Assembly (NCBI GenBank): GCA_017882335.1
Contig: JADGPR010000006.1
Coordinates: forward strand, 5,419-69,418
Direction: 5' to 3'
DNA: 64,000 bases
Source: Bacteroidales bacterium
GTDB lineage: Bacteria; Bacteroidota; Bacteroidia; Bacteroidales; FEN-979
The notes under the pieces were generated by a model, which worked only from the letters and a program-made list of their open reading frames with translations, searched no databases and was not told the origin of the DNA. Position 1 is the stretch's first letter, and every line of letters starts with the position of its first letter. The position numbers and the translations under genes are program-made. Positions 2,428 to 48,902 of the stretch are shown here, piece after piece.

Positions 2428-2474
2428 TAAAGAGTAGCGTGAATACTGATGTAAAGTTAAGAAATATTTTTATT

Positions 2475-3236
2475 TCAGGAAGGAAGTAGGGAAGAACCTA
2501 TTTTCTGTGCGAGCTTATCGGCAAGACGGCTTGCCCCGATCCTGAAGAGGTTTTTGTTGAGCCAGCCTGCTCCAAGGATCCGCTCTGTAAGGAGATAATA
2601 TTGAACTGCCTGATCGGGTTCAGATATTCCACCGGCAGGCTTGATTCCAATTTTCTTGCCGGATTTTTCATACTGTTCGCGTATCACTTCCAGCATGATT
2701 TCCATGGCTTCTTCGGTGGCGGCGGGCTGAATCTTCCCGGTTGAAGTTTTGATGAAATCGGCTCCTGCGGCGATGGCTATCTCACTTGCTTTGCGTATGA
2801 GAGCGGGGCTCTTGAGTTCACCCGTTTCAAGGATCACTTTCAGGTGAACCTCTTTGCAAACTTCACGGATGGCTGCGATCTCATCGAAGACATAACATTC
2901 ATCTCCTTCCAGCAGGCGGCCCCTTGAAATCACCATATCGATCTCGTCGGCTCCCTCGTTTATGGTGTATCTGACTTCCTCAAGCCTTATAGCTAATGGC
3001 GATTGGCCGCTCGGAAATGCTCCTGCTACGGCTGCTACCCGGATACCGGTTCCTTTCAGTTGATTTTTTGCCAACCTTACAAACGGTGGATAAACGCAGA
3101 CAGCAGCAGGCAATGGTAGTCCGGATTCGCCGAATGAACATGCTTTTCGGCACAATTCAATAATCCTTCCGTTATTATCGCTGCCTTCAAGTGTCGTTAG
3201 GTCAATGCATGATAAAAGAGTGCGAAAAGAGTCCAT
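2475..3236 (-). CDS. deoC: deoxyribose-phosphate aldolase
   Basis: Motifs IDLTTLEG, VCVYP, EIDMVI, KVILETGEL, and the Schiff-base lysine in FIKTSTGK. Confidence 0.85.
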   Translation of the reverse strand: MDSFRTLLSCIDLTTLEGSDNNGRIIELCRKACSFGESGLPLPAAVCVYPPFVRLAKNQLKGTGIRVAAVAGAFPSGQSPLAIRLEEVRYTINEGADEIDMVISRGRLLEGDECYVFDEIAAIREVCKEVHLKVILETGELKSPALIRKASEIAIAAGADFIKTSTGKIQPAATEEAMEIMLEVIREQYEKSGKKIGIKPAGGISEPDQAVQYYLLTERILGAGWLNKNLFRIGASRLADKLAQKIGSSLLPS

Positions 3237-3251
3237 TGTTGTTGCGGGATG

Positions 3252-5567
3252 TCAGAATGTAAAGTTGATCCCCATGCTGGGCATGAGTGGTAACTGGTCA
3301 ATGCGCTTATAACTAACCCGGTCGAAATAGAAAATATTCTGTTGGTTTAATGCATTGGTAAGGCTGGCGCTGATTTCAATTTTCGTGTAGCGTCCAAGAT
3401 CGAATTTCTTCTTAAGATTAAGGTCCAGCCTGCTGTAATAGGGCAACCTGCCTTTGTTGTATTCTGCATACATGATTCCGAGGGTTCCGTTCTGGTTTAT
3501 CACGGTGGTTCCTATATCATTGAAATTGATTTGCTCATAGAAACCGGCGGTTTGTGTAAAGGGAAACCCGGAGCCGTAATTCCAACGCACATCTACCTCC
3601 CAGCCCTGGTGTTTGCCGAATACATAAGAAGCCGTGAGATTAACATTGTGCCGGCGGTCATATACAGGCACATACCATGTCTGCCCATCATACCTGTGAA
3701 TAAAACATAGGGAATAGACTCCCCAGAAGTGTAATTGTTTGTAGTCATAACGAAGGGAAACATCAATACCCTCTGCATCTCCCGTTTCAATGACAAAATC
3801 TTTTTTCAGATAATCCGGTTTATCGGCATTTTCCGGAATATCTTCGTAAAGTTTATTTCTGTTCAGGGTGGTAAGTTGTGGATAGTATTTGTAATAGCCT
3901 TCCACATTCAGGGAAAGGTTTTTAAAAAGATCGGCTTCAAAGCCGAACACCACCTGGTCGGATTTTTGATACTTGCTGGTTACCGTATGCCCATTGAATT
4001 TTTCCGGAAGGTTGTTGGGTCCTCCGATAAAACCATAGAAAAGATTGACGACATCCTTATCATAGGTTGTGCTGACAAGATTCTGTGAATAGAGACCGGC
4101 AGCCATTTTTAACCGGAATCGTTCGCTGACATTGAATTTGATGGCCAGGCGGGGTTCAATGGAGGCAGATCCAAGGGAAGCATAATATTGCAGGCGCACC
4201 CCCGGTTCAAAAATAAATTTACCCATCAGCCATTTGTATTTTACATAAACGGAAGGATCGGTGGTATTCTGATCTGTGATGATGCTTCGGTTTACGGAAT
4301 TGAAGAAAGTAAGGTTGGTTTTGTAACCGCTCAGGTCAATTCCATATTTGAGGGCATCCTTCCCGAAAAAATAGGTAAAATGAAATCCCCCTGAAAAACC
4401 TGAAATGGAACTGGATCTGGGTGAAGTATTTGCCTGTTGAAGTGTTACCTTATATTGGGAATAGGCAAAATTACCCTCAAGAAGAACAGGCGACCCCCCC
4501 GGGATGACGATAAAATTGGTTCCACCCCCATAGGAATCCCACTGGTAATTTTGCAGTACCTTGTATTGAACGTTATCGGTAAAATCAAAACCATAGAGGT
4601 TTATTTTACTGCCATTGGATGCACTGATGGATATCTTGCCGTAAATGTCCAGGTAATTATAAGGTAAACCGTTTTTATCGATATAGCTGTACAAAGCTTT
4701 TGAACTCTCTTTGAGGTAAGAGTTTTTTACTGAAAGGATGAAGGATGCGCCGGACCCGTCTTCTCCTTTTGCCCTGGCGATAGGCCCTTCCACTAAGACT
4801 TTTGCTCCGAAGGTACTTACGTCTATCTTCCCTGCAATACGGTTCTTGTTCCCGTCGCGGGTGGTTATATTCATGATGGAAGAGATCCTTCCCCCGTATT
4901 CTGCACCAAAACCACCGGTCATTACATCCACATTTTTCAGGATGTCCACATCAAACACGGAGAAGAGCCCGATGGAATGAAACGGCTGGTAGAGTTCCAT
5001 CCCGTCCAGCAATACCTTGTTCTGGATCGGGGGGCCGCCACGGATGTAAAGTTGCCCTCCCTGGTCGCCGGAAAAGATTACCCCAGGAAGAACCTGGAGG
5101 TACTGTGCCAGGTCGGGTTGCCCGCCAATGGTGGGGATCTGCCCGATGTCTTTCGGCGTTATTTTTATAATGGAGGTCTGTGTTTCAACTTTTTTATCCT
5201 CCCTTGCGGCAGAAATACTGAACTCTCCCAGCGTAAAGGTGGATTTTTTCAGATACAATTTTTTAGTAATCAGATCGTTGCTTTTGATCGTAATGGGGAT
5301 TTGTAAAGTATCAAACCCCATATAGGAAACCATTAAGGTATATTGTCCTGGGGGAATCTTCATGATGGAAAAAAAACCATTCACATCCGTGGCTGCCCCT
5401 AATGACGTTTTATAAAGGTAAACATTGGTGAAAATCACCGGCTCTCCACTCTCTGTTTCGTAAACAAAGCCCCGTATGACCCCGGTTTGCGCCTGGGTCC
5501 GTGAAGAGATCGCGTAAATTAAAAAGGAAATGACAAGGAAAAACAAAAATAGTAACTTAGGCCTCAT
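3252..5567 (-). CDS. TonB-dependent receptor-like outer-membrane protein with N-terminal carboxypeptidase-regulatory-like domain
   Basis: 771 aa with a signal peptide, a CarboxypepD_reg-like N-terminus (GVIRGFVYE..GEPV..NVYL..TDVNGFFSI..PGQYTL), a plug-like region, and a long beta-barrel ending ...SMGINFTF. Confidence 0.8.
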   Translation of the reverse strand: MRPKLLFLFFLVISFLIYAISSRTQAQTGVIRGFVYETESGEPVIFTNVYLYKTSLGAATDVNGFFSIMKIPPGQYTLMVSYMGFDTLQIPITIKSNDLITKKLYLKKSTFTLGEFSISAAREDKKVETQTSIIKITPKDIGQIPTIGGQPDLAQYLQVLPGVIFSGDQGGQLYIRGGPPIQNKVLLDGMELYQPFHSIGLFSVFDVDILKNVDVMTGGFGAEYGGRISSIMNITTRDGNKNRIAGKIDVSTFGAKVLVEGPIARAKGEDGSGASFILSVKNSYLKESSKALYSYIDKNGLPYNYLDIYGKISISASNGSKINLYGFDFTDNVQYKVLQNYQWDSYGGGTNFIVIPGGSPVLLEGNFAYSQYKVTLQQANTSPRSSSISGFSGGFHFTYFFGKDALKYGIDLSGYKTNLTFFNSVNRSIITDQNTTDPSVYVKYKWLMGKFIFEPGVRLQYYASLGSASIEPRLAIKFNVSERFRLKMAAGLYSQNLVSTTYDKDVVNLFYGFIGGPNNLPEKFNGHTVTSKYQKSDQVVFGFEADLFKNLSLNVEGYYKYYPQLTTLNRNKLYEDIPENADKPDYLKKDFVIETGDAEGIDVSLRYDYKQLHFWGVYSLCFIHRYDGQTWYVPVYDRRHNVNLTASYVFGKHQGWEVDVRWNYGSGFPFTQTAGFYEQINFNDIGTTVINQNGTLGIMYAEYNKGRLPYYSRLDLNLKKKFDLGRYTKIEISASLTNALNQQNIFYFDRVSYKRIDQLPLMPSMGINFTF

Positions 5568-5699
5568 AAAGATGATAATGGTAGTAAATAAAATTTATGC
5601 TACAAAAATAGATATTCTGACCTAGAAAAAAAATAAATTAAAGAGAGGTTACTCCGGCATGGGTTCACCTGCTCTTTAGGTTATTCAGAATTTTATTTT

Positions 5700-5707
5700 T
5701 ACTTTTG
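5700..5707 (+). promoter_or_regulatory. Bacteroidota-type -7 promoter box (TAnnTTTG) upstream of iorA
   Basis: TACTTTTG, 28 nt upstream of the ATG at 5735. Confidence 0.45.
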
Positions 5708-5734
5708 TCCATAATAAATAATTTTAATAGGATT

Positions 5735-7351
5735 ATGCAAAGACTTCTACTTCTGGGAGATGAAGCCATCGCTCAGGGAGCACTGGATGCCGGACTGTCG
5801 GGGATTTACGCCTACCCGGGAACGCCATCCACTGAAATCACTGAATTTGTTCAGTACTCAAAGCAAGCGAAACAGGATAAGATTCATTCAACATGGTCGG
5901 CAAATGAAAAGACCGCCATGGAATCTGCTCTTGGAATGTCCTATGCCGGCAAACGGTCCATGGTATGTATGAAGCATGTCGGACTGAATGTTGCGGCTGA
6001 TCCCTTTGTGAACTCAGCAATCACAGGTGCTAATGGGGGATTGATTATCGTGGCCGCCGATGATCCTTCCATGCACTCTTCCCAGAATGAACAGGATTCA
6101 CGGTTTTTTGGAAAATTTGCTATGGTGCCTATCCTTGAGCCGGTAAACCAGCAGGAAGCCTATGATATGGTTCACTATGGATTTGATTTTTCGGAACGTT
6201 ACAAAGTTCCCGTGATGATGCGGATCACCACCCGCCTGGCCCATTCCCGTGCCGGTGTGAAAAGGAAAGATCCCCGGAAAAGGAATGACCTGAAACTCCC
6301 GGAAAACCTCCAGCAGTTTGTCCTATTGCCTGCCCTTGCACGGAAAAGATACCGGAACCTTTTAAAGGCACAGGATTTCTTCGAACAGGAATCAGAAACA
6401 TCACCCTTTAATCAATTCATTGATGGCCCTGACAAATCTCTTGGGATCATTGTTTGTGGTATCGCCTATAATTATTTGATGGAGAATTATCCCGACCGGC
6501 ATGTTCCACATCCTGTTCTGAAAATCGGGCAGTATCCTTTGCCAAGGAAAATGATCGACCGGCTTTATTCGGAATGTAAGGAAATCCTTGTTCTCGAGGA
6601 TGGTTACCCCATCGTGGAAGAATCCCTGAAAGGATTGCTTGGTAAAGGATTGAAAATAAAAGGCCGGCTCGATGGAACCGTTCCCAGGGATGGTGAGCTG
6701 AACCCAAATATCGTCACGGTATCTCTGGGAATGAAAGACACCTATGGCTTGCCAGTTCCTTCACTGATGGTTGAACGTCCACCTTCATTGTGTTCAGGCT
6801 GCCCGCACATCGATTCATTCAAAGCGATAAACGAAGTTCTTGCAGTCTTGCCGAAAGGGCGTGTTTTCTCCGATATCGGTTGCTATACGCTGGGCGCTTT
6901 GAAACCCTACGAAGCCATCAACTCCTGTGTGGATATGGGCGCTTCGATCACGATGGCGAAAGGCGCGGCGGATGCCGGACTGATCCCTTCCGTTGCCGTT
7001 ATCGGCGACTCTACCTTTACCCATTCGGGAATGACAGGATTACTGGATGCCGTCAATGATAAATCGCCGATCACCATTTTTATCCTTGATAATGGCACTA
7101 CTGCCATGACCGGCGGCCAGGACTCACCGGCATTCGGAAAGATCGAAGATATATGTAAAGGAATGGGGGTGGAAGAGGGACATCTTCATGTACTCCGCCC
7201 GCTGAAGAAATTTCACGAAGAAAATGTTAAGATCATCAATGAAGAACTTGCCTATCCGGGGGTTTCGGTTATCATTCCGCGGCGGGAATGCATCGTAACC
7301 ATTGATAAACGTGTCAGGGAAAAATTCAAACAGGCAGAAACGGCCGGATAA
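5735..7351 (+). CDS. iorA: indolepyruvate:ferredoxin oxidoreductase, alpha subunit (TPP-dependent)
   Basis: N-terminus LLLGDEAIAQGALDAGL..YPGTPSTEI, Cys cluster LCSGCPH, and TPP-binding motif GDSTFTHSG. I prefer the ATG at 5735 to the upstream track start because a TACTTTTG box sits at 5700-5707. Confidence 0.85.
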   Translation: MQRLLLLGDEAIAQGALDAGLSGIYAYPGTPSTEITEFVQYSKQAKQDKIHSTWSANEKTAMESALGMSYAGKRSMVCMKHVGLNVAADPFVNSAITGANGGLIIVAADDPSMHSSQNEQDSRFFGKFAMVPILEPVNQQEAYDMVHYGFDFSERYKVPVMMRITTRLAHSRAGVKRKDPRKRNDLKLPENLQQFVLLPALARKRYRNLLKAQDFFEQESETSPFNQFIDGPDKSLGIIVCGIAYNYLMENYPDRHVPHPVLKIGQYPLPRKMIDRLYSECKEILVLEDGYPIVEESLKGLLGKGLKIKGRLDGTVPRDGELNPNIVTVSLGMKDTYGLPVPSLMVERPPSLCSGCPHIDSFKAINEVLAVLPKGRVFSDIGCYTLGALKPYEAINSCVDMGASITMAKGAADAGLIPSVAVIGDSTFTHSGMTGLLDAVNDKSPITIFILDNGTTAMTGGQDSPAFGKIEDICKGMGVEEGHLHVLRPLKKFHEENVKIINEELAYPGVSVIIPRRECIVTIDKRVREKFKQAETAG

Positions 7352-35616: not shown

Positions 35617-36951
35617 TTACTCATTCTCTTCCTCGAACCATTTCTGAATTTTCTCAATAAATGAGTCGGTGAATTTCCGCCCTGACTTATCGGGATCCTT
35701 TGGTTTCTTCTCTTTGACCTTCTTTGTTTTCGTCACTTTTTCCTCGGGTTCCGGAATCTCCTCGGCAACGGCAGGTTTCATTCTTTCTTTTTCCTTTTCA
35801 TACCGGTCGATCCCGACAATGACGAGGCCGATTCCGGTTGCATACATCGGACTGGCCATCTCCTCTGGAACGTCGTTGGCAAGGTGTTCATTGGGATAAC
35901 CGATACGTGTATCCAAGCCGGTCTTAAATTCTGTCAGCTGTGCGATATGCTTCATTTGTGCACCGCCACCTGTCAGCACAATCCCTCCGATAAGCTTCTT
36001 CTCATAACCCGAGTTCTTGATCTCAAAATAGATGTATTCAATGATTTCTTCCATTCTTGCCTGGATGATGTTTGCCAGGTTGCGGATGCTGATCTCCTTC
36101 GGGGAGCGGCCTCTTAACCCGGGGATTGCCACAATCTCTTCTTCCCGGTTTTCACTTGCCAGTGCAGAGCCGAATTTGACTTTCAATTCCTCTGCATGTT
36201 TCTTTATTATCGAACACCCTTCTTTTACATCTTCGGTGATAATATCTCCACCAAGGGGAATCACAGCCGTATGCCGGATGATGCCTTCATGAAAGATGGC
36301 TATGTCCGAAGTTCCTCCGCCAATATCGACAAGAACGACACCTGCTTCTTTTTCTTCTTCACTCAAAACAGCCTCGGCCGAAGCAATGGGTTCAAGGATC
36401 AGGTCAACCACATCGAGTCCGGCTTTCCTTACACATTTATAGATATTCTTGGCAGCAGCCGTTTGTCCTACAATAATGTGAAAATTAGCTTCGAGCGAAC
36501 TGCCCATCATCCCCTTGGGCGACTTGACAACATGCTCACCGTCGAGGCTGAATTGCTGTGGAATAACCTCGATGATCTCCTCACCCGGGTTCATATTCAG
36601 GTTATACATGCTATTGACGAGGGTCTCGATCTCTTCCTGGCTGATCTCCGTTTCGCTGTCCTTGCGGATGGTACTGCCATGATGCTGAAGGCTCTTGATA
36701 TGCTGGCCGGCAATTCCGACATTCACATACCGGATATCGACACCCGATTTCTGCGAAGCTTCCTTGATGGCATCCTTGATCGATTGCACCGTGTTTTCAA
36801 TGTTGGAAACAACGCCTCTTTTTACTCCGATCGACGGAACCTTGCCATGGCCAAGAATTTCGATCTTCCCAAATTCATTTTTATGTCCGACAATGACTGC
36901 AATCTTCGTCGTGCCAATATCTAATCCTACAATGATCTCTGATGTTTTCAT
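35617..36951 (-). CDS. ftsA: cell division protein FtsA
   Basis: Motifs GLDIGTTKI, DIGGGTSDIAIF, LTGGGAQ. Confidence 0.95.
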   Translation of the reverse strand: MKTSEIIVGLDIGTTKIAVIVGHKNEFGKIEILGHGKVPSIGVKRGVVSNIENTVQSIKDAIKEASQKSGVDIRYVNVGIAGQHIKSLQHHGSTIRKDSETEISQEEIETLVNSMYNLNMNPGEEIIEVIPQQFSLDGEHVVKSPKGMMGSSLEANFHIIVGQTAAAKNIYKCVRKAGLDVVDLILEPIASAEAVLSEEEKEAGVVLVDIGGGTSDIAIFHEGIIRHTAVIPLGGDIITEDVKEGCSIIKKHAEELKVKFGSALASENREEEIVAIPGLRGRSPKEISIRNLANIIQARMEEIIEYIYFEIKNSGYEKKLIGGIVLTGGGAQMKHIAQLTEFKTGLDTRIGYPNEHLANDVPEEMASPMYATGIGLVIVGIDRYEKEKERMKPAVAEEIPEPEEKVTKTKKVKEKKPKDPDKSGRKFTDSFIEKIQKWFEEENE

Positions 36952-36958
36952 ATTCTAC

Positions 36959-37762
36959 TTAAATTTTTGAACAAACAACCTGATTTTTAAATTTTATATT
37001 GATGATATTGTATCTGGTCCATCCGGTTTTACTCAATCCCATCCTGTAAAAGACAAACAAACGTTCGAATTTATCTTCCAGGTTATCTGCTCTTCCCATC
37101 AGGATGATATGGGTTCCTACCCTGGGGATCAGCTCGAATTCACCGTTTGGATCAACATAGATTTGCTCGATCTGGGCTTTCAGAAATTTATCTTTGGTAA
37201 TAAAGGCAGATAACTTGTAAAGATTGTTCATCACCGAGTGGCATTCCATCGAATCTTTCTTTCGTACCGAATCGGTAAGGTAACAAACCTTCTTCGAGAA
37301 AGGTTCCAGGATGGATCCTGTGGCTACAAGCACACGGGCCGAGAAAGCAGGATTCAGGGGCATCAGATTCCCCAGGCCGTCAAGGTAAAAACTCTCTCCC
37401 TTTTCATTAAAGATACGGAGGATGGGTTGGCGCTGAACAACGTCGATTTCAACTACTCCATCAAGTGTCATGTAAGCCTCCGCATCGGCCACATATGATT
37501 GACGCTTTATATCACGCTCGATCCGCTCGAAATCGATAGAACCCAGGTGTTGACCTTTCAGTAGGTTCCCGGTTGCTTTTACAACCGTATAAATATCTCC
37601 TTCCGTAACCAGCACATCCGCCTTGCCGTAATCGACGCGAATGATGTATTTTTTACAAACTTCGTTGTTGTGCTCGATGGCGGTAAATCCAAGAAGTGCA
37701 AACAGGCCGCCTGTCATAAGCACCCATGCTGCAATTTCAAGGATCTTCAGAAATTTCTTCAT
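36959..37762 (-). CDS. ftsQ: cell division protein FtsQ-like (POTRA-containing)
   Basis: An N-terminal transmembrane span, position between murC and ftsA, 267 aa. Confidence 0.75.
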   Translation of the reverse strand: MKKFLKILEIAAWVLMTGGLFALLGFTAIEHNNEVCKKYIIRVDYGKADVLVTEGDIYTVVKATGNLLKGQHLGSIDFERIERDIKRQSYVADAEAYMTLDGVVEIDVVQRQPILRIFNEKGESFYLDGLGNLMPLNPAFSARVLVATGSILEPFSKKVCYLTDSVRKKDSMECHSVMNNLYKLSAFITKDKFLKAQIEQIYVDPNGEFELIPRVGTHIILMGRADNLEDKFERLFVFYRMGLSKTGWTRYNIINIKFKNQVVCSKI

Positions 37763-37771
37763 TTTCTTTTG

Positions 37772-39157
37772 TCACATATTCGTAAATAACTCCCGTATCG
37801 GTTTTACAAGTTGGTCAATATCGCCTGCACCCAATGTTAACAGGACTTCCGGTTTACTTGATCTCAGTTCGCCCGTAAGATCGGTTTTACTACATATCTT
37901 TTTGTTTTGCAGTTGCACTTTTCCCAGCAGCATTGCCGAATCAATCCCTGCTACCGGGTTTTCCCTTGCAGGGTAGATCTCAAGAAGGATCAGTTCATCC
38001 AGTAATTCCAGGCTGCGTGCAAATGCATCTGCAAAATCACGCGTGCGTGTGAAAAGATGCGGCTGGAAGATCCCGGTTATCTTTTTGGAGGGATAGATCT
38101 CCCTGACAGCACGGATACAGGCCTTTAACTCTTGCGGGTGATGGGCATAATCGTCAATGTAAACAAAATCATCTTGGATCACCTGGAAATCAAAACGGCG
38201 CTCAACACCCTCAAAGGTCAGCAACGACTGTGCAATAACCTCATCCGGTATTCCGACTGTATAAGCAACTGCGGCGGCGGCTATGGCATTTTCAAGATTG
38301 AATTTCCCAGGTAAGCCGAGTGTAATATTCCGGATCGTTCTTGCGGGTGTGACAAGATCAAAAATAAAACGGCTGTTCTCCAGCCGGATATTCTCCGGAT
38401 AAAAATCTGCATCTCCTTCGAGGTGATAGGTCTGTATGGTATAGTTGTCAGCTTCTTCCGGTACGATATCTACGCCTTTTTTCAGGATCAGTGTTCCGTT
38501 TTTTTGAAGGTTGGATGTGAATTCACCGAAGGAGAGCCTGACTTCATCAATATTACCATAGATGTCGAGATGATCCGCATCGGCAGAAGTGATAACCGCA
38601 ATATCCGGGTAAAGCCGGAGAAACGAACGGTCAAACTCATCGGCCTCAACAATATAATATACTGGTGAACTGATAGACTGGTTAGCGGACAGGCCGGAGG
38701 TGATGAAGTTTGAGTGGTAATTTTTAGAAATTCCTCCGAGAAATGCTATGCTGTCTATTCCTGCAGTTTTTAGCAGGTGGGCAACCAGTGTCGTGATGGT
38801 GGTTTTTCCATGGGTTCCGGCAATGGCAATGGTCTTTGCATTGCGGGTGATCATCTCAAGGACTTCAGATCGTTTTTTCAGGGGAAGTCCTTTTGCAATC
38901 ACGAATTGAAGCTCATTATTGTCTTTTGGAAGGGCAGGCGTATAAACTACAAGATCTGGATGATCCGGAACAAGTTCCGGGTTATCATCAAAATGAACAG
39001 AGATTCCTTCTTCGATAAGTTGATGGGTCAAGGTCGTTGGCGTTTTATCATACCCCAAAACCATCACACCGTACCGGTGGAAATAACGGGCCAGGGCACT
39101 CATACCGATTCCTCCGATGCCCAGGAAATATACCGACCTATACTGATGAATTTCCAT
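37772..39157 (-). CDS. murC: UDP-N-acetylmuramate--L-alanine ligase
   Basis: Motifs FLGIGGIGMSALA and IAGTHGKTTITTL. Confidence 0.95.
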   Translation of the reverse strand: MEIHQYRSVYFLGIGGIGMSALARYFHRYGVMVLGYDKTPTTLTHQLIEEGISVHFDDNPELVPDHPDLVVYTPALPKDNNELQFVIAKGLPLKKRSEVLEMITRNAKTIAIAGTHGKTTITTLVAHLLKTAGIDSIAFLGGISKNYHSNFITSGLSANQSISSPVYYIVEADEFDRSFLRLYPDIAVITSADADHLDIYGNIDEVRLSFGEFTSNLQKNGTLILKKGVDIVPEEADNYTIQTYHLEGDADFYPENIRLENSRFIFDLVTPARTIRNITLGLPGKFNLENAIAAAAVAYTVGIPDEVIAQSLLTFEGVERRFDFQVIQDDFVYIDDYAHHPQELKACIRAVREIYPSKKITGIFQPHLFTRTRDFADAFARSLELLDELILLEIYPARENPVAGIDSAMLLGKVQLQNKKICSKTDLTGELRSSKPEVLLTLGAGDIDQLVKPIRELFTNM

Positions 39158-39165
39158 CCTGTTCT

Positions 39166-40269
39166 TTATTCTTTTTTTCTGATAAGTTTCATGGTTTCTT
39201 TCGCGATCTTGCTGGCAGACTCCGGAAGAGCCATGGTTTTAATATGTTTACTTAAATCATTTTGTAACCCGTTGTCAGCAGCCAGGCTTTTCACAAGGCC
39301 GAAAAGTTTCTCTACAGCATCCTGGTCCTTTAGCATCAATGCTGCCGACTTTCTTTTCAGCGCCTCAGCATTTTTCGTTTGATGATCTTCGGCAACATTG
39401 GGGGAAGGGATGAGGATGACCGGTTTTCCGATAATACACAATTCCGATATGGCAATCGCACCTGCACGGGATATAATGATATCTGCTGCCGTATAGGCCA
39501 GGTCCATCCGGTCGATGAATGGATGTACATGAACATCTTCCCTGTTCAGGATTTTCTGGTTGGATTTGATGGAGTTATAATGATACTTCCCTGTTTGCCA
39601 CAACAATTGAAAATTATCTTGTTCATCCTGGTGGTACAGATAGTGTAAAACGCTTTTGTTAATTGTTCCGGCACCAAGGCTGCCCCCGATGATCAAAACC
39701 ACTTTCTTTTCCTTATTCAGTTGAAAATGTTCCAGTGCCTCGGTATTATTTCCCGGCGTGATAATATCCTGGCGTACCGGGTTCCCGGTTAGGATGATCT
39801 TCCCGGCTGGGAAAAACCGCTCCATGCCTTCATAGGCAACACAAATCTTATCGACTTTTCCACCCAGCAACTTATTTGTTATTCCGGGATAGGAATTCTG
39901 TTCCTGGATCAATGCCGGTATTTTTCTTCTCACTGCTATTCGCAGGGTAGGACCGCTTGCATAACCGCCAACGCCAATCACCACATCGGGTTTGAATTTC
40001 GCAAGGATCCGGTCAGCCATTACTAAACTGGAGATGACTTTAAATGGAAAACTCAGGTTTTTCCAGGTAACCCGGCGCTGGAGGCCGCTGATCCATAAAC
40101 CCTGGATCTTGTATCCTGCAGCAGGCACTTTTTCCATCTCCATTCTGCCCTTTGCTCCGATGAAAAGGATCTCTATGTTTGGCTCAATCGCTTTGAGGGC
40201 ATTGGCAATAGCAATGGCAGGAAAGATATGTCCTCCTGTTCCTCCTCCGCTGATAATGATCCGGGTCAT
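39166..40269 (-). CDS. murG: undecaprenyldiphospho-muramoylpentapeptide beta-N-acetylglucosaminyltransferase
   Basis: SGGGTGGHIFPAIAIA, 367 aa. Confidence 0.95.
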   Translation of the reverse strand: MTRIIISGGGTGGHIFPAIAIANALKAIEPNIEILFIGAKGRMEMEKVPAAGYKIQGLWISGLQRRVTWKNLSFPFKVISSLVMADRILAKFKPDVVIGVGGYASGPTLRIAVRRKIPALIQEQNSYPGITNKLLGGKVDKICVAYEGMERFFPAGKIILTGNPVRQDIITPGNNTEALEHFQLNKEKKVVLIIGGSLGAGTINKSVLHYLYHQDEQDNFQLLWQTGKYHYNSIKSNQKILNREDVHVHPFIDRMDLAYTAADIIISRAGAIAISELCIIGKPVILIPSPNVAEDHQTKNAEALKRKSAALMLKDQDAVEKLFGLVKSLAADNGLQNDLSKHIKTMALPESASKIAKETMKLIRKKE

Positions 40270-40287
40270 ACTTTTCAGAATTATTTT

Positions 40288-41484
40288 TTAGCTGGTTGCA
40301 GGAACAAGGTTCCCTTCACTCAGAATTTCAACTTCCGTTCCATCCTTGGTTTCAATATCAATTCTCCTGCTCACACTCAAAATGATCCCGATAGAAATAC
40401 AGGTAAACCATATCGAAGTGCCTCCCATACTGATCAGTGGCAATGTTTGTCCCGTAACCGGGAACAGATGAACAGCCACTGCCATGTTGATCATGGCTTG
40501 GAATACCAGGCTGAAACCGATCCCGATCGCAAGAAAAGCCCCGAAATTTCCCTGGCATTTCGTAGTAATCCTTACAACACGGAAAAAGAGGATACAGTAC
40601 AAGAGCACCACGAATCCTCCTCCCACAATACCATATTCCTCCACGATGATGGCAAATATGAAATCAGAATAGGGGTGAGGCAGAAAATTCCGTTGTGTGC
40701 TTTTTCCCGGCGATTTCCCCAGTATTCCGCCTGAAACAATGGCAATCTTAGCTTGCTCTACCTGGTAATTCGCATCTTCATCGCCTTTTTCTTTATTCAG
40801 GAAATGATCCACACGGTTGATCCAGGTTCCGCCACGGGGGAAAAGATTGGGTGCAGCTTTTGCCAGAGTGAAGATCAGCACAACGGCAACGATACCCAAT
40901 CCTACCAGTGAAAAAATATATTTCAGCGAGATCCTTCCGATAAACATCAGCACCATGCTGGTTACAAATAAAATTGCTGCCGTGGAAAAATTGGCAGGAA
41001 GGATCAATGTACAAATGAAGATGGCGGGAATAATAACTGGTAAAAATCCCGACTTGAAATGCTTGATCTCCTCCTGTTTTTTGCTGAGCACCCGTGCCAG
41101 GTACATGATCAGGAAAAGCTTGGCTACATCAGAACTCTGAAAAGTAAGATTGATGATGGGTACCGTGAGCCAGCGGTTTGCTTCGTTGAGGTTGGTTCCT
41201 GATAATAGTGTGATGAACAATAAAGGGATGGTTAAGATCAGGCCGATCTGGGAGATTCTTGAAAAATATGTGTATTTGACAAGGTGTGTCGCATACATCA
41301 GCAGGATCCCGAAAACCAGGATTGCAAAATGTTTGAAAAGGTAATATTCGGTGTTCCCTCCCTGCTTCTTATAAGCCAGCGTTCCCGTTGAACTATAAAC
41401 CGCAAGTAAGGAAAAAATGCAAAGGATGGTCACAACGACCCAAATCACTACATCTCCTTTTGCATTCCTGAAATATTTGTTCAT
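40288..41484 (-). CDS. ftsW: SEDS-family peptidoglycan polymerase FtsW
   Basis: About 10 transmembrane spans and LPLISMGGTS. Confidence 0.9.
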   Translation of the reverse strand: MNKYFRNAKGDVVIWVVVTILCIFSLLAVYSSTGTLAYKKQGGNTEYYLFKHFAILVFGILLMYATHLVKYTYFSRISQIGLILTIPLLFITLLSGTNLNEANRWLTVPIINLTFQSSDVAKLFLIMYLARVLSKKQEEIKHFKSGFLPVIIPAIFICTLILPANFSTAAILFVTSMVLMFIGRISLKYIFSLVGLGIVAVVLIFTLAKAAPNLFPRGGTWINRVDHFLNKEKGDEDANYQVEQAKIAIVSGGILGKSPGKSTQRNFLPHPYSDFIFAIIVEEYGIVGGGFVVLLYCILFFRVVRITTKCQGNFGAFLAIGIGFSLVFQAMINMAVAVHLFPVTGQTLPLISMGGTSIWFTCISIGIILSVSRRIDIETKDGTEVEILSEGNLVPATS

Positions 41485-41495
41485 GACTTTGAAGA

Positions 41496-42044
41496 TTAAA
41501 GTTGTTTCACTGCTTTTTTGAAGGCGATTCCACGTTCTTCATAGTCTTTAAAGAGATCAAAGCTGGCACATCCCGGAGAGAGTAGGACAACATCCCCAAT
41601 CACTCCTGCAAAATAGGCCAACTCCACGGCTTCGTCCATCGTCGATGCATCCGTTAACGGGATTTCAAGGTCCGACATCGAAGAAATGAAATAAGTGCTG
41701 TCCATCCCAAGAAAAATGATCGACTTGACCTTGGCCTTGATCAAAAGTTTAAGTTGGGTATAATCGATGCCTGAATCCATGCCCCCGGCGATCCAGATGA
41801 CCGGTTTGGACATGCTTTCCAGTGTGAACCAGGTCGAATTGATATTTGTGGACCTGGAATCATTGATGAACTCGATCCCATGAACATTTGCAACGGATTC
41901 CATCCTATGCTCCATGTCCTGGAAATCACAAAAACATTCCCTGATGAAATTACTCCTGACTTCCTTAATGCGGGCTGTTATGGATGCAGCCATAGAACTA
42001 TGCACCCCGGGATGTCCTTGTAAAGCCAATGTTTCTAATGTCAT
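41496..42044 (-). pseudogene. murD: murD 3' remnant: only the C-terminal third of UDP-N-acetylmuramoylalanine--D-glutamate ligase
   Basis: The 182-aa ORF covers the Mur-ligase C-terminal domain (..HGIEFINDS.STN...T...L.....PVIWIAGG.D.G.DY..L......K...II.LG........VLLSPGCASFDLFKDYEERG..F). Only 38 nt separate it from the mraY stop at 42083. There is no N-terminal Rossmann domain or GxxGKT domain in any frame. Confidence 0.75.
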
Positions 42045-42082
42045 GTTTTCAGTTTTATAGAGTTCGTCTTTGAATGACTGTT

Positions 42083-43336
42083 TTACCTCAATTTCAATGT
42101 TACAATGGTCAGCACTGCCAGCATGATCCCGATAATGAAAAAGCGGATCACAATTTTTGATTCATGGTATCCTTTGACCTGGAAATGATGGTGCAGCGGC
42201 GACATCAGGAATATCCTGCGGCCGGCCCCGAACCTGCGTTTCGTATATTTAAAGTACCCTACCTGCATAACCACCGAAAGGTTCTCAATGAGAAAGATCC
42301 CACAGAAAATCGGGATCATGATCTCTTTTCGGATCAGGATGGCAAATACAGCGATAATGCCGCCCAGCGCCAGGCTGCCGGTATCTCCCATAAAAACCTG
42401 GGCAGGATATGAGTTGTACCAGAGAAACCCGATACAGGCCCCGACGAATGCGCTGATATAGATTGCCAGCTCGCCGGTATTCGGAATGTACATGATGTTC
42501 AGGTAATTTGCGAAGATGATGTTGCCGGAGACATAAGCCAGGATTCCCAGCGTAAGTCCGATGATTGCCGAACTCCCGGTCGCAAGCCCGTCCAACCCGT
42601 CGGTCAGGTTTGCACCATTTGATACAGCAATAATGATGAAGATGATGATGGGTATGAATATTAAGAATGTCCAATTTTTATAATTCTTCCCGATCCAGGA
42701 GATCAAAACAGAATAATCAAATTCATTGTTTTTCAGGAAAGGGATGGTAGTCTTCGTGGATTTTGTTGGAATATTCGTGTACATCTTTGCACGGTCTGAA
42801 TTACCTTCCACATTGAAAATCTCGGAGGAGGGAACAAAGGCCTGCCTGGTTGTCTTCTCACGGATTACGATGTCCTTGCTGAAAAACATGGTGGTTCCGA
42901 CAATCAGGCCCAACCCGATCTGTCCCATGATTTTGAATTTTCCTGCAAGACCTTTTTTATCCTTGCGGAATACTTTGATGTAATCATCCATGAATCCGAT
43001 GGTTCCCAACCAGACCGTTGAAACGAGGATCAGAAAGATATAGATGTTATGAAGTTTTGCCAGGAGAAGGGTAGGGACAAGGATAGCTGCAAGGATGATA
43101 AGCCCACCCATCGTAGGTGTTCCCTGTTTGGCCGTTTGTCCTTCCAGACCGAGATCCCGGATGGTTTCACCTACCTGTTTTCTCCGCAGGTAACCGATCA
43201 GCCTTTTTCCAATGATCATTGAAATGAAGAGCGATGTAATAAGCGCCAGTGCTGCCCTGAACGAGATGTATTGGAATACACCTGCTCCTGGGAAATCAAA
43301 GGCTTCGTGCAGCCAGATGAATAAATAATACAGCAT
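42083..43336 (-). CDS. mraY: phospho-N-acetylmuramoyl-pentapeptide transferase
   Basis: Motifs [28 protein letters not shown]. 417 aa. Confidence 0.95.
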
Positions 43337-43353
43337 AATCTTTTTATTATGAG

Positions 43354-44817
43354 TTATTCTACTCCCACTCCCAATACTTCATTCAAAACTATTTTATCGT
43401 CAAAAGGATACTTAACTCCTTTTATTTCCTGGTATGTTTCGTGCCCTTTGCCGGCTACCAGGATGATATCTCCCGGTTTCGCAAGGGCACAGGCCGTTTT
43501 GATCGCCTCTTTGCGGTTTACGATCACCAGTACCTTGTTGGCAAACTGCGGCTCTATCCCTTTCTTCATATCATCCAGAATGGCTTCAGGCTCTTCAAAA
43601 CGGGGATTGTCGGACGTAAGGATAACCCTGTCGCTGAGGTTGCATGCTATTTTAGCCATCATAGGCCGTTTGGCAGCATCGCGATTCCCACCTGCTCCAA
43701 CAACCGTGATGATCTTTTCCTTGTGGGTACGGATCGATTGGATTGTTCCCAGGACATTTTGCAAAGCATCAGGAGTATGCGCATAATCCACAATGGCTGT
43801 GATCGCATTCGGTGTCCGGATATAATTGAACCGCCCGTCAACAGGCTCACAAAGGCTAAGCTGGGTTAATACATTTTGCCGCTCCTCTCCGAGAAGGACT
43901 GCCGTGGCATATACTGCCAACAGGTTATAGGCATTGAAGTTCCCGATCAGCCGGAACCAGCAATCTGTTCCATCCATAGAGAGATGCAAACCCTGGAATT
44001 GGTTCTCGAGGATCCTGCAATGGAAGTCAGCCATGGATTGCATGCTGTAGGTGGAAACAGTCGCATTTGTATTCTGTACCATCATCCTCCCATTCCTGTC
44101 ATCCTTGTTAATAAGTGCAAATGCGCTACCGGGCAGGTCGTCAAAAAAGGTTTTCTTGGCCTTAAGATAGGCATCAAAAGTTTTATGATAATCCAGGTGA
44201 TCGTGTGTCAGATTAGTAAAAATGGCTCCCCTGAAAGTAAGACCGGCAACCCGGCGCTGAACCACTGCATGTGAACTTACTTCCATGAAACAATGGGTGC
44301 ACCCTTCCTCAACCATCTGTGCCAGCAATTCATTCAGCTGAACAGGATCGGGAGTCGTATGGGTTGTCGCAAGGTTCCGTTCCCGGATCTTATTCTGTAT
44401 GGTGGAAATCAACCCGGCTTTGTGACCCAGTTTTTGAAAAAGCTGGTGCAAAAGAGTAACCGTTGTCGTTTTTCCATTAGTGCCGGTAACTCCCACCAAG
44501 TTCAGTAAGGATGAGGGATTCCCAAAAAAATTTGAAGCGATTACAGCCTTGGCATAGCTGCTGTCATCTACGAGGATATAAGTGACTTGCCTTTCCGGGT
44601 TTTTCGGAATTTTTTCACATACCACTGCAACGGCTCCTGACCTTACAGCATCGGGAATAAATTGATGTCCATCAGAGGCGGTCCCCTTTACAGCAAAGTA
44701 GAGACAACCGCGGTCGACTGTCCGGGAATCGAATTTCAGCGAATGAATTTCAATATCCACTGACCCAAATATCTCCTTCACTCCCGCCTTTTCCAGTATA
44801 TCTCCTAACCTCTTCAT
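43354..44817 (-). CDS. murE: UDP-N-acetylmuramoyl-L-alanyl-D-glutamate--2,6-diaminopimelate ligase
   Basis: Motifs [21 protein letters not shown], and a DNPR-type motif (TSDNPRFE). Confidence 0.95.
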
Positions 44818-44820
44818 GAT

Positions 44821-44918
44821 CTCTGTTCTCTGTTCTCTATTCTATATTTGTTATTCGCTGTTCGCTGTTCGCTATTCGCTTTCGCTTCTCACTCTTCACC
44901 CTTCACCCTTCACCCTTC
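44821..44918. repeat. 98-bp tract of 14 in-phase heptamers filling the ftsI-murE spacer
   Basis: (CTCTGTT)2 CTCTATT CTATATT TGTTATT (CGCTGTT)2 CGCTATT CGCTTTC GCTTCTC ACTCTTC (ACCCTTC)3. The tract is pyrimidine-rich on the plus strand, so it is purine-rich in the dcw mRNA. Confidence 0.9.
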
Positions 44919-44920
44919 AC

Positions 44921-47050
44921 TCAACCTTTTCCCATTGCCAAATCCAATGACACTATGGATCCTTTTATATACATTCTTCCCGGGCTGAGAGATTGCCTGA
45001 CCACATTGCCTTTCCCATTCAACACAACCTTTAATCCCATTTGTTCGAGGAGAAAAACGGCATCTTTCACCCCCATTCCAGTCACATCCGGCATGGTTCC
45101 CTGGTAATGATTTGATGGCAGAAGTATCACCGATGAATTGTTCGAAACCGGTATCGCCCACTGGGCCACCGGGTTCAAGGGTTTTGCTTTGATGTTAAGC
45201 CAAGCATAAGCATCTTCCAGGTCCTTTTGTACACCTGCATTTGCAGAAGGGATCAGGTGTCCGGAGGTATCCTGCGGAGGAGGATTGTTGACGTCATGAA
45301 GGTTGGCAAAGATCCGGTCGGCGATCTCCTTGAAAACCGGAGCAGCAACCGCACCACCATAATATTTTCCCTTGGATGGATTGTTGATGACCACAATGAT
45401 GGAATACCTGGGATGGTCGGCCGGAAAATACCCCACAAAGGATCCTTTGTATTTAATGGCTTTGGTTCCCTGCCCATATCCCTTGTTGTTCATGGCAATC
45501 TGGGCAGTGCCGGTTTTCCCTGCAACTTTGTAATGCGGGTTCTTTAATGAAGTTCCAGTTCCGCGTTCCACAACTCCTTCCAGGAGCATTTGGGCTTTTT
45601 CAATCGTAGCCGGCGAACAGATATGCGGATTGATGACCACCGGCTCAAAAGATTGAACTACCTGGCCATTTTTCCGGATTTCCCTGACAAAAAGTGGCTT
45701 TACCATTACCCCGTTATTGGCAACTGCATTGTATAATGTAAGGGTCTGTAAAGGAGTAATGGCGACTTCATATCCGATCGCCATCCAGGGTAACGATACT
45801 GCAGACCACCATTTACTCTTCGTGTTCTTAATATAAGGCATGCCTTCACCGCCTATTTGGAGATTCTGCGGGAGGTTGATCGACATCCTGTAAAGTCCGT
45901 CGATATATTTCTGCGGTTCATCGACATATGCATTATAGATCAGTTTGGAAGTTCCAACATTGGAGGATTTTTCAAACACCTGGTGCGCCAGTAAGGTACC
46001 TGTCAACTTATGTGCATCCGTCATCGACCTTCCATGATAATTCATGACGCCATTGCCCAGGTTGACCGGCTGGTCCATGGAAATCTTCCCATCTTCCAAT
46101 CCTACAAGAAATGAAGCCAGTTTAAAAGTCGATCCGGGTTCCGAACTTTCTCCTATAGCATAATTAAATACCTCTTCATATCCTCCTTTAGGGCTTTTAC
46201 CAAGATTGATGATCGCTTTGATAAACCCGGTCTTGACTTCCATCACGATCACGCATCCATGATCAGCACTATCGGCGCTTAGTTCTTTTCTTAAAGCAGA
46301 TTCTGCCAGGTCCTGCAGATTGATATCCAGTGTTGTGATGATATCATCTCCATTCTGGGGCTCTACTTCATTCTCGATATCCACAGGCATCCAGGCGGCA
46401 TTACCGATCCTTCGCATCAGCCTCTTGCCCCCGGTGCCTTGTAGATTTTTACTGAACGAGCCTTCCAGTCCCACATAAACTTTTTGTGCAGCTTCCGTGT
46501 TCTCATATCCGATAGTACGACGGGCAAGGTTCTTAAAAGGAAGCTCCCGTTGGAATTGCGGTATGACGATCATTCCACCTTTATAGGTCCCCAGTTTGAG
46601 AATCGGGAATTTGCGCATCTGCCTGAGTTCCGGATAGGTTACATCGCGGTGGATCATCAGGTATCGGTCTCCGTTTCGCCTTCCTTCCCATAAGAAATTT
46701 TTGTACTCGGAAAGATTTTTGTCTTTGAACAGTTTTGTAAGTTGATAAGCAAGCGAATCTATCTTATTCTTGAAAAGACCCTCGGTGATCAGGTCTGAAC
46801 TTACGTCCATCCGGATGTCGAAAATGGGAATGGATGTGGCAAGCAGCGTCCCATCGTCTGCACAGATATTGCCGCGGATTGCATCGACAGGAAAAAAACG
46901 CATTTCCTGCTTTCGGGCTTTTTCAAGCAATTCTTTTCCTTCCGAGGACCGGATATAAATCGCTTTCCCGATGATCGCCATGCCGAAAAGCAGTATCCCG
47001 AAATAAACGACATACACACGTAACAATATGTCTTTCTTGATCTCTTTCAT
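44921..47050 (-). CDS. ftsI: class B penicillin-binding protein (FtsI/PBP3-type) with C-terminal PASTA domain
   Basis: Motifs GSTFK, SSN, and KTGT (AGKTGTAQ). C-terminal PASTA-like region MPDVTGMGVKDAVFLLEQMGLKV. Confidence 0.9.
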   Translation of the reverse strand: MKEIKKDILLRVYVVYFGILLFGMAIIGKAIYIRSSEGKELLEKARKQEMRFFPVDAIRGNICADDGTLLATSIPIFDIRMDVSSDLITEGLFKNKIDSLAYQLTKLFKDKNLSEYKNFLWEGRRNGDRYLMIHRDVTYPELRQMRKFPILKLGTYKGGMIVIPQFQRELPFKNLARRTIGYENTEAAQKVYVGLEGSFSKNLQGTGGKRLMRRIGNAAWMPVDIENEVEPQNGDDIITTLDINLQDLAESALRKELSADSADHGCVIVMEVKTGFIKAIINLGKSPKGGYEEVFNYAIGESSEPGSTFKLASFLVGLEDGKISMDQPVNLGNGVMNYHGRSMTDAHKLTGTLLAHQVFEKSSNVGTSKLIYNAYVDEPQKYIDGLYRMSINLPQNLQIGGEGMPYIKNTKSKWWSAVSLPWMAIGYEVAITPLQTLTLYNAVANNGVMVKPLFVREIRKNGQVVQSFEPVVINPHICSPATIEKAQMLLEGVVERGTGTSLKNPHYKVAGKTGTAQIAMNNKGYGQGTKAIKYKGSFVGYFPADHPRYSIIVVINNPSKGKYYGGAVAAPVFKEIADRIFANLHDVNNPPPQDTSGHLIPSANAGVQKDLEDAYAWLNIKAKPLNPVAQWAIPVSNNSSVILLPSNHYQGTMPDVTGMGVKDAVFLLEQMGLKVVLNGKGNVVRQSLSPGRMYIKGSIVSLDLAMGKG

Positions 47051-47475
47051 GGATTTTTATGAAGCGTATCGGTTTCTTTTTTTAAAAGGGCTTTTGAATA
47101 AAAGAGCTTATAAGGAGGCGTGGTGGTTCCTTTTATCCCCAGCCGTTCTACCTTTTTAGCGATCTCGGTTTGCTTGCCTACATCCAACATCTTCGCTTTT
47201 GCTGTTATTGACTGATACCGCAATTCTTTCAGTTCATTTTTTATTTTTTCGATATTTTTGAATGTCTTTTCCGAGTAATAGGTATTGCCGATATAAAACA
47301 TGGCGAGGATGGCTATGAAGATGAGGAATGGCAGATTCCTGAGCACGGCATGATTCGACAGAAGATCACCGCCGATGACATCATGGATCCCTTTGGTCAT
47401 CTTCCGGGGCTTCCTCACGGGACGGATTTCTTCCATCTGTGATTCCGGCGTTGGATTTTTCTTTTCCTCCTCCAT
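47047..47475 (-). CDS. ftsL: FtsL-like cell division protein
   Basis: 142 aa with a single transmembrane span (LPFLIFIAILAMFYI) and a coiled coil. It sits between rsmH and ftsI. Confidence 0.7.
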   Translation of the reverse strand: MEEEKKNPTPESQMEEIRPVRKPRKMTKGIHDVIGGDLLSNHAVLRNLPFLIFIAILAMFYIGNTYYSEKTFKNIEKIKNELKELRYQSITAKAKMLDVGKQTEIAKKVERLGIKGTTTPPYKLFYSKALLKKETDTLHKNP

Positions 47476-47478
47476 TTA

Positions 47479-48372
47479 TCAGATCTTTTCAGCAATACGT
47501 AATCGGGCGCTCCGGGCCCTGCTGTTCATACCAATCTCTTTCTGGTCAGGAACAATGGATTTCCGGTTGATGACCGATAAGGGGACGATCGGGTTCCCAT
47601 AAAAGTCCTTTTGCAGATTCCCGTCAAAATTCCCCGAACGGAAATAATCCTTTACCAGTTTGTCTTCCAGCGAGTGATAGGAGATCACAACCAGGCGGCC
47701 TCCCTTTTTCAGAACATCTGTTGCCTGGATTAGGAATTCCTTCAAAGCTTCCAGTTCCTGGTTCACTTCTATTCTCAGTGCCTGGAAGACTTGTGCAAAA
47801 AATTTATTTTCTTTTCCCTTTTCGGCTGCATGCGTCAGTGCTTCTTTTAATTCCATTGTGGTGTTGACCGGGTTCGTTTTCCTCGCTGTTACGATAAGCC
47901 TTGCGATTTTTGTGGCATTCCGCAGGTTGCCATATTCACGGAATATTGATGCCAGTTTATCTTCCGGGTATTGATTCACGATTTCTTTTGCCGATATTTT
48001 TTTATCCCGGTTCATTCTCATATCCAGTTCCCCTTCAAACCGTGTTGAAAATCCCCTTTCAGGATGATCGATCTGGTAGGATGAGATCCCAAGATCAGCG
48101 AGAATTCCATCGACCGGAACGGTTTTGTAGAGTTTAAGAAAATTTCGCAGGTACCTGAAGTTGTTATGGATCAGGATGAGGCGCTCATCCTCAATCTTAT
48201 TGTTCAATGCATCTTCATCCTGGTCGAATGCGAACAATTTTCCCCCTTTCAATTCTTTCAGGATCGCCTTTGAATGTCCGCCTCCCCCATAGGTTGCATC
48301 CACATATGTGCCACCCGGCTGTATCACCAGTGCCTTTATGCTTTCCTCAAGGAGCACACTTTTATGAAACAT
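47479..48372 (-). CDS. rsmH: 16S rRNA (cytosine1402-N4)-methyltransferase
   Basis: Motifs HKSVLL.E, DATYGGGGHS, GISSYQ. Confidence 0.95.
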   Translation of the reverse strand: MFHKSVLLEESIKALVIQPGGTYVDATYGGGGHSKAILKELKGGKLFAFDQDEDALNNKIEDERLILIHNNFRYLRNFLKLYKTVPVDGILADLGISSYQIDHPERGFSTRFEGELDMRMNRDKKISAKEIVNQYPEDKLASIFREYGNLRNATKIARLIVTARKTNPVNTTMELKEALTHAAEKGKENKFFAQVFQALRIEVNQELEALKEFLIQATDVLKKGGRLVVISYHSLEDKLVKDYFRSGNFDGNLQKDFYGNPIVPLSVINRKSIVPDQKEIGMNSRARSARLRIAEKI

Positions 48373-48838
48373 TTTCCGGTTCTTCAGGTTTATGGAGTTT
48401 CCCCATCACTTTTTCCGCCAGGTCAGCATATTCCTCGTCCGACATTTTCAGATGCTGCTCATATTCCTCTTTAGCCCATACTTCAATTCGATTGGAAAAT
48501 GCAGATAAGATCAGATCCTTCTGGATCCGGGCGTATTCCAATAAAGTTTTAGGTATAAGGACTCGATTGCTGGCGTCAAGCTGAAGTTCCGTTGCCCCTC
48601 TGTTGAAATTGCGGGCAAAAATCCGGTGATCTTTAACAAAAAGGTTCAATTGATTTACATCCCTGCTGACCTCTATCCACTCATTCATAGGGTACATGGT
48701 CAGGCAGTTCTCAAAACCCCGGTTGATGACAAATTTCTCCTGCGCTTCCGGCGGGATTTGCTTCTTCAGCCCGGCAGGAAGGATAATACGCCCTTTGTCG
48801 TCGATACGGCATTCATATTCACCGTGGAGAATGGTCAT
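48362..48838 (-). CDS. mraZ: division/cell-wall cluster transcriptional regulator MraZ
   Basis: Two SpoVT/AbrB-like halves with DDKGRIILP and DASNRVLIP. I prefer the ATG at 48838, because the longer track ORF (to 48892) reads through the operator repeats. Confidence 0.9.
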   Translation of the reverse strand: MTILHGEYECRIDDKGRIILPAGLKKQIPPEAQEKFVINRGFENCLTMYPMNEWIEVSRDVNQLNLFVKDHRIFARNFNRGATELQLDASNRVLIPKTLLEYARIQKDLILSAFSNRIEVWAKEEYEQHLKMSDEEYADLAEKVMGKLHKPEEPENVS

Positions 48839-48875
48839 AGCAGGGGGAAAATTTGAAGGTGTAAATATATAGGAA

Positions 48876-48902
48876 TCCCCACGATTCCCCACCTTTCCCC
48901 AC
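48876..48902 (-). promoter_or_regulatory. putative MraZ operator: three direct GTGGGGA repeats at 10-bp spacing upstream of mraZ
   Basis: The minus strand reads GTGGGGAAAG GTGGGGAATC GTGGGGATTC. On the plus strand this is TCCCCAC at 48876-82, 48886-92 and 48896-902. The site lies 38-64 nt upstream of the mraZ ATG and is directly preceded by a near-consensus -7 box AATATTTG (plus strand 48903-48910). Confidence 0.65.

Follow-up and report, generated by a model that had tools for sequence, protein, structure and literature searches.

An alternative to the MurI/MurD route to peptidoglycan D-Glu, through MurD2 and MurL, has been described in Xanthomonas oryzae (Feng et al. 2017, 2019; 2021 review, PMC8788868). 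The determinants of L-Glu specificity in MurD2 are E197 and R358, which put Glu in place of E. coli D182 and Arg in place of K348; a change at K319 also lets MurD accept L-Glu, and Xanthomonas MurL and MurD2 act alone in vitro (PMC8788868). Holders of the pathway in that review are Xanthomonadales, a few Alphaproteobacteria and rare actinomycetes only, with Bacteroidota not listed, and our literature searches found no report of MurL in Bacteroidetes.

Mur ligases have also been converted to other uses. MurT of the GatD/MurT lipid II amidotransferase (structures 6H5E and 6GS2) is a Mur-ligase derivative that lost one domain and gained a new role, although it keeps the ATP-binding central domain and is catalytic. 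In the plastid-encoded RNA polymerase complex, a Mur-ligase fold serves as a non-enzymatic structural subunit; this MurE-like PAP subunit, which we take to be chains 8R6S_Q and 8QMA_O, belongs to a eukaryotic organelle, derives from MurE and has no link to the cell wall or division. Literature searches found no published description of a truncated or stand-alone MurD C-terminal domain.

Here we describe such a domain, encoded in the dcw cluster of a Bacteroidales bacterium within a 64,000-nucleotide stretch of DNA (the window). We hold it likely, with good confidence, that this is a selected gene for a non-ligase MurD tail domain and that the ligase step has passed to a murL–murD2 pair elsewhere in the genome, and we infer a role as a non-catalytic adaptor. 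The features of the locus are as follows.

35617..48892, minus strand: dcw cluster, assigned by Pfam for part and by gene order and length for the rest
42083..43336, minus strand: mraY, upstream neighbour (Pfam Glycos_transf_4 and MraY_sig1)
42045..42082, minus strand: 38-nt A-rich spacer from the mraY stop to the ATG (...AAAACTGAAAAC ATG)
41496..42044, minus strand: stand-alone MurD tail-domain gene, 182 codons plus stop, ATG start
41913..42044, minus strand: residues 1–44, what is left of MurD domain 2, its last strand and helix (alignment; pLDDT 46–70)
41499..41912, minus strand: residues 45–182, core of MurD domain 3 (AlphaFold2 pLDDT 82–97, Foldseek, residue table)
40288..41484, minus strand: ftsW, downstream neighbour (Pfam FTSW_RODA_SPOVE, 254.8 bits)

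Pfam confirmed the order murE–mraY–(murD tail)–ftsW–murG–murC, with the usual lengths and domains for the five genes around the tail; putative mraZ, rsmH, ftsL and ftsI precede murE, and putative ftsQ and ftsA follow murC, on position and length only. The initial annotation of this DNA had reported an otherwise normal cluster in which only a 182-codon ORF, the last third of MurD, stands between mraY and ftsW at 38 nt from mraY, and ORF calls, Pfam and TIGR01087 all agree. The product scored 28.6 bits against Pfam Mur_ligase_C (PF02875), whose gathering cut-off is 28.4, and thus belongs to this domain family. Against TIGR01087 (murD) it scored 159.9 bits over model positions 264–440 only, below the cut-off of 211.95 that defines MurD ligases. 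When the whole 3.13-Mb assembly was searched with HMMs in six frames, murD positions 242–440 alone were matched at the locus, which bears out the earlier statement that the N-terminal UDP-binding Rossmann domain and the P-loop domain are absent there in all frames. The start of ftsW lies 11 nt past the stop of the short ORF. At the other end, A occupies position −3 in 76% and position −11 in 74% of short-ORF starts (n = 46). As initiation in Bacteroidetes is promoted by an A at −3 (PMC6847099), the 38-nt spacer is probably a translation initiation region of the Bacteroidetes type, without a Shine–Dalgarno sequence. Some lineages start 17 residues later, giving 165-aa forms; the N-terminal tryptic peptide of the 182-aa product is (M)TLETLALQGHPGVHSSMAASITAR.

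The AlphaFold2 model of the product, built with 46 homologues, had a mean pLDDT of 82, being confident over residues 45–182 (82–97) and weak over residues 1–40. Its best structural match by Foldseek was domain 3 of Pseudomonas aeruginosa MurD (7U35; rmsd 1.5 Å over 143 columns, E = 9e-16), and the two MurT structures (E about 3e-5) and the two plastid polymerase chains (E = 1e-4 to 2e-5) matched as well. Compared to MurT, the short ORF is likewise a reduced Mur ligase but keeps the C-terminal domain only. With canonical MurD it shares the mraY–ftsW slot, the domain-3 fold and, as argued below, direct descent; the core keeps the motifs HR.E, NDS.(A/S)TN, GG and LLSP.C.SFD.F..YEERG, of which HR.E, NDS.ATN and SP.C.SFD.F are common to both. 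It differs in having lost domains 1 and 2 save the last strand and helix, in its decayed adenine motif, in the replaced and variable Lys348 and in its score (160 versus 212 bits), and the column of the GxxGK(S/T) P-loop is a gap in all 46 short forms aligned.

In the window protein, the GKHNxxN ATP-adenine motif reads GHPGVHSS, as had been noted from the sequence, K319 is replaced by Arg and K348, which binds D-Glu in E. coli MurD, by Ser (Ser91), so the MurD-ligase contacts of N268/N271 in the motif, K319 and K348 are missing. Across the 46 short forms, the K348 position is Lys in 16 and takes 12 different residues overall, and the K319 position is mostly Lys or Arg. With no UDP-binding domain, no P-loop, a decayed adenine motif and a variable K348, the product is incapable of ligation; lacking domains 1 and 2, it is unable to bind UDP-MurNAc-L-Ala or ATP productively. 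A ligand-binding or sensor role of the tail domain is possible, because the short forms of Bacteroidales retain D317 (46/46), H301 (43/46), S415 (41/46) and T321, along with the strand motifs.

The sole full-length MurD of the genome lies on another contig (C3, 3364–4746; 460 aa; 310 bits over TIGR01087 positions 1–440). The first 8 nt of its gene are shared with the end of another (4739–6130), which encodes a 463-aa homologue of MurL, the ATP-dependent L-Glu to D-Glu epimerase. This homologue matched NCBIfam NF041275 with E = 7.9e-75 and 252 bits over positions 37–393, against an equivalog cut-off of 700 in a model tuned to Xanthomonadales, and its sequence includes both a GGGKDS PP-loop and a cysteine cluster, CGSCAKC. 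The C3 copy reads QEH, GGFDRG and NDSIAT at the diagnostic sites, giving Glu at D182, Ile at K319 and Arg at K348. The same Glu/Ile/Arg combination was found in 21 of 21 MurL-adjacent copies, and Asp/Lys/Lys was invariant in the canonical dcw MurDs examined. Having both the Glu and Arg residues and murL next to it, the C3 copy appears to be of the MurD2 type, with L-Glu specificity predicted from its residues.

Glutamate racemase gave no TIGR00067 match above the cut-off in the window's genome (best, 38 bits) and is absent in all relatives with the short ORF, every one of which pairs murL with murD2. A MurD2/MurL replacement fits a genome without glutamate racemase. On homology and the published DETERMINANTS, the essential ligase step would be carried out by the overlapping murL–murD2 pair on the other contig, and dcw murD could be truncated because that pair replaces the ligase. 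Among the explanations put forward at the outset, a murD copy elsewhere in the genome was thus found by the genome-wide search that had been suggested, on contig C3 and once only, and D-Glu addition by other means proved correct in substance, given the MurD2-type residues, the overlap with murL and the missing racemase.

On contig C3 (2224–6130; locus L001), murL, murD2 and a gene for a cell-wall hydrolase with glucosaminidase and LysM domains (2224–3243) run head to tail on one strand, and an ORF of ~330 aa comes next after murD2 in most family members too. In two further genomes, MurL and MurD2 matches fall in single frames of 949 aa (G113:C329:4119-6818) and 885 aa (G106:C23:10814-13216), which are probably MurL–MurD2 fusion proteins in two Bacteroidales families. 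The dcw cluster lacks murF, and the other Mur-type ligases of the window's genome are MurC, MurE and three encoded outside the cluster, on contigs C8 (46.9 kb), C94 (52 kb) and C42 (6 kb): an 848-aa fusion of a Mur ligase with alanine racemase (Alr), a 429-aa MurF candidate (Mur_ligase N/M/C) and a 455-aa Mpl-like ligase, MurF and Mpl being named by resemblance. Pfam recognized a C-terminal domain in two of the ligases on other contigs, and one was seen by eye only in the Mur-ligase–Alr fusion. We rejected a split MurD with its N-terminal and central module elsewhere, since every other Mur-type ligase has a C-terminal part of its own.

To place the pathway in the order Bacteroidales, we used an even sample of 201 genomes. 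MurL was present in 74 and MurI in 120, and both occurred together in one, a fragmented genome. The murL–murD2 pair of the window's genome matches the X. oryzae pathway in its Glu and Arg residues, with overlapping genes and no murI; here the pathway extends to over a third of the sample, and the short ORF itself derives from canonical MurD, outside the MurD2/MurL family. About half of the MurL-bearing genomes have a full canonical dcw MurD and the other half the short form. The full MurDs in MurL-bearing, MurI-lacking Bacteroidales (for example, L086–L097) have the P-loop Lys, D182, K319 and K348 intact. These genomes have no recognized D-Glu source, with neither murI nor D-amino-acid aminotransferase above the cut-off. 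The aminotransferase (TIGR01121), considered as a source for the genomes that keep full MurD, was dismissed, being above the cut-off in 0 of 67 MurL-bearing genomes; class-IV aminotransferase matches below threshold (11 of 34 genomes with the full form, 3 of 33 with the short form) are too weak to interpret.

A comparison of the syntenic region in relatives, also suggested in the initial annotation, located the short ORF in the same slot in ~50 Bacteroidales genomes. Nineteen of these are members of the same genus and family, with 47–91% identity over residues 1–182, and the other ~30 represent different families within the order. The distance from the end of mraY to the ORF stop is 535–680 nt in short forms versus ~1,340–1,390 nt where murD is full length, and a closed 5.27-Mb contig from the same family has the identical mraY–short ORF–ftsW arrangement. 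In public protein collections, 1,519 clusters matched at E ≤ 1e-10, and most of the best 120 listed are exactly 182 aa long. Short forms are now annotated as MurD, 'cyanophycin synthetase' or hypothetical protein.

Within the genus, pairwise dN/dS of the short ORF was 0.057–0.106 (dS 0.23–2.3), and in the three closest pairs (dS 0.23–0.42) it was 0.09–0.11, compared with 0.08–0.16 for murC, 0.08–0.16 for murE and 0.03–0.09 for mraY. These values are in the range of murG, murC, murE and ftsQ and slightly above those of mraY and ftsW. The frame is open at ~182 codons down to 31–47% identity in dozens of families, and 28 columns are invariant in 46 diverse short forms. Because purifying selection matches that on its essential neighbours, the short ORF is a real gene, functional and maintained by selection, rather than a decaying relic. 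The term 'remnant', used for it initially, is right in that only the tail of MurD is present, but is misleading for a gene under such selection.

Some genomes depart from this pattern. Two branches of the C-domain tree are very long (G094, 3.28; G106, 1.73). Complete loss in G141 and G082 was rejected, as diverged copies at 31–32% identity are present, and in G138 and G172 mraY was not found, so the slot after it could not be read. In the MurL-bearing genome G103 (L185; G103:C183, 1–2727), the dcw cluster breaks off after mraY and neither a tail domain nor ftsW was detected there, so that the gene may be dispensable in some lineages; the next gene after mraY encodes a 333-aa ApbE-like protein (by eye). 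In one genus member (L057; G011:C4, 3864–4469), the short ORF and murG look split, with only residues 75–167 aligning in one frame, probably through assembly indel errors rather than decay.

We next considered where the short gene came from. In the C-domain tree, MurD2 formed a separate clade (support 100/100) and the short ORFs were nested among canonical dcw MurDs; the window's short ORF has 31% identity to the MurD2 of its own genome versus 44–59% to canonical dcw MurDs. By its sequence relationships, the short gene descends from canonical dcw murD, not from MurD2. The ancestral gene lost approximately its first 262 codons, and the reading frame now begins at an internal Met codon, which is conserved in 74 of 79 full-length canonical murD genes spanning Bacteroidales, Flavobacteriales, Chitinophagales, Sphingobacteriales and Marinilabiliales. 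A profile search with the short-ORF alignment against other Bacteroidota contigs, close relatives left out, yielded no MurDs other than canonical full-length ones.

The tree intermingles short and full forms, requiring 10 state changes, at least 3 of which are forced by well-supported branches, and a single clade of all short forms was rejected by the AU test (p = 0.011). A single GTDB family, or even genus, can contain both states, the spacers after mraY range from 1 to 126 nt with stop-ridden pieces of the central domain retained in some lineages, and GKHNxxN is intact in the short forms G069 and G163 but decayed in others, including that of the window. On these grounds several independent truncations are probably the better reading, and they would converge on the same product because each starts at the conserved internal Met codon.

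The sequence ahead of this codon is A-rich in full-length genes too. In 74 full-length murD genes (L098–L177), A makes up 49% of the 18 nt leading up to the conserved internal ATG, compared with 33% of the whole gene, 33% ahead of 601 other internal ATGs and 45% ahead of the annotated start. At −3, A is found in 69% of these genes, and at third codon positions from −7 to −16 its frequency is 0.39–0.49 versus 0.19–0.27 before other internal ATGs. Whether species with only a full-length murD might make the tail domain from the internal AUG as well is a conjecture that we regard as rather doubtful. The internal Met is not lost where an extra copy of the domain exists (13 of 13 keep it), which lends no support to a nested gene, and its conservation may be purely structural.

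Such extra copies were found in Flavobacteriales-type genomes. In 13 of 80 canonical Bacteroidota loci, a full murD is followed by an additional MurD-C-only ORF of 155–190 aa directly before ftsW, and one Cryomorphaceae locus (L118, 3061–4107) has two such MurD-C-like ORFs in succession. Seven more loci (L099, L110, L121, L132, L148, L149 and L157) have murD–ftsW gaps of 400–640 nt with ORFs of 120–160 aa, which may be further diverged family members. The extra copies form their own clade among Flavobacteriales-type MurDs and are under purifying selection (dN/dS 0.07–0.29); their genomes have MurI in 13 of 13 cases and MurL in none. Like the window gene, they are free, selected copies of MurD domain 3 upstream of ftsW with degenerate D-Glu-site residues. 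Unlike it, they are partial tandem duplications beside an intact murD, with MurI present and without MurL, fall in a separate clade and are without the N-terminal MTLE.LALQG strand. That a free tail domain is selected both with and without MurD2/MurL argues against a role as a partner of these two proteins and for a ligase-independent function tied to the surrounding membrane and division genes; a tail domain that serves MurL or MurD2 was down-weighted for this reason.

These data bear unequally on the other ways in which the locus might be read. The last of the initial explanations, that the assembly collapsed or dropped ~0.8 kb with the coding sequence of the N-terminal and central MurD domains, has in its favour that the window comes from a 123-contig draft, but it is in effect refuted and we give it virtually no credence: the short ORF and short spacer recur in ~50 independent assemblies, one of them the closed contig, and in the 1,519 protein clusters, and a complete alternative pathway is present with murI absent. 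Barely more probable is a neutral relic, a pseudogene fragment left by the MurD2/MurL takeover and not yet erased. Lost catalytic domains, decay at K348 and GKHN..N, the two very long branches and the possible loss in G103 would all suit a relic, which is at odds with a dN/dS of 0.06–0.11 over the whole range of dS, with a frame kept open at 31–47% identity and with the 28 invariant columns. The sequence could also be retained for operon mechanics only, with the protein irrelevant, if its translation were coupled to that of ftsW or if the 3' end of murD housed a promoter or RNA element. The 11 nt to ftsW and the constant slot just upstream of it are compatible with this, yet such a constraint would account neither for amino-acid changes being ten times rarer than synonymous ones over the whole ORF nor for an extra, separately evolving copy where a full murD already precedes ftsW; we rate it as highly improbable.

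The strongest of these competitors, though still unlikely, is that domain 3 acts in trans, docking either on the N-terminal and central module of another Mur-type protein or on MurD2 or MurL, and so retains a part in D-Glu chemistry, for example by recognizing the product or passing it on to MurE. MurD2/MurL accompany every short form, and the short forms largely retain H301, D317, T321 and S415, as well as a Phe in the L416 position. Weighing against docking, the other Mur-type ligases have C-terminal domains of their own (two by Pfam, the Mur-ligase–Alr fusion by eye), K348 varies through 12 residues, and free tail domains are found in 13 genomes with MurI and full MurD but no MurL; moreover, Xanthomonas MurL and MurD2 are sufficient in vitro (PMC8788868).

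We therefore return to a non-catalytic structural adaptor, which from gene position, recurrence and selection is the most likely role of the short gene. Free domain 3 would act independently of the ligase within the precursor and division machinery (MraY, FtsW and MurG), in the way that the MurE-like plastid polymerase subunit offers a precedent for a Mur-ligase fold as a non-enzymatic structural part. The proposal builds on the arrival of a free domain before ftsW by two unrelated routes: murD would be truncated once MurD2/MurL makes the ligase dispensable, and the domain would be duplicated in tandem where MurD is still needed. The MigC–MurD interaction of Acinetobacter was set aside, since it involves MurD domain 2. 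Because Bacteroidota have repeatedly kept or made a free tail domain in front of ftsW, a second, undescribed role of this domain is probable. The more specific proposal, that MurD domain 3 is a small cytoplasmic adaptor working with FtsW together with MraY and MurG and has repeatedly been freed by truncation or duplication, is tentative, and we put it at somewhat short of an even chance.

For the order as a whole, approximately one-third of the Bacteroidales species in the sample, most of them uncultured, appear to obtain their peptidoglycan D-Glu through MurD2/MurL rather than MurI/MurD, which is relevant to any idea of a narrow-spectrum inhibitor directed against MurD2/MurL. A 'missing essential enzyme' in these genomes marks the replacement of a pathway, and this bears on how they are annotated. 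Selection as strong as on essential dcw genes, combined with repeated origins before ftsW, constitutes a natural experiment that hints at a new role for a domain of a textbook enzyme.
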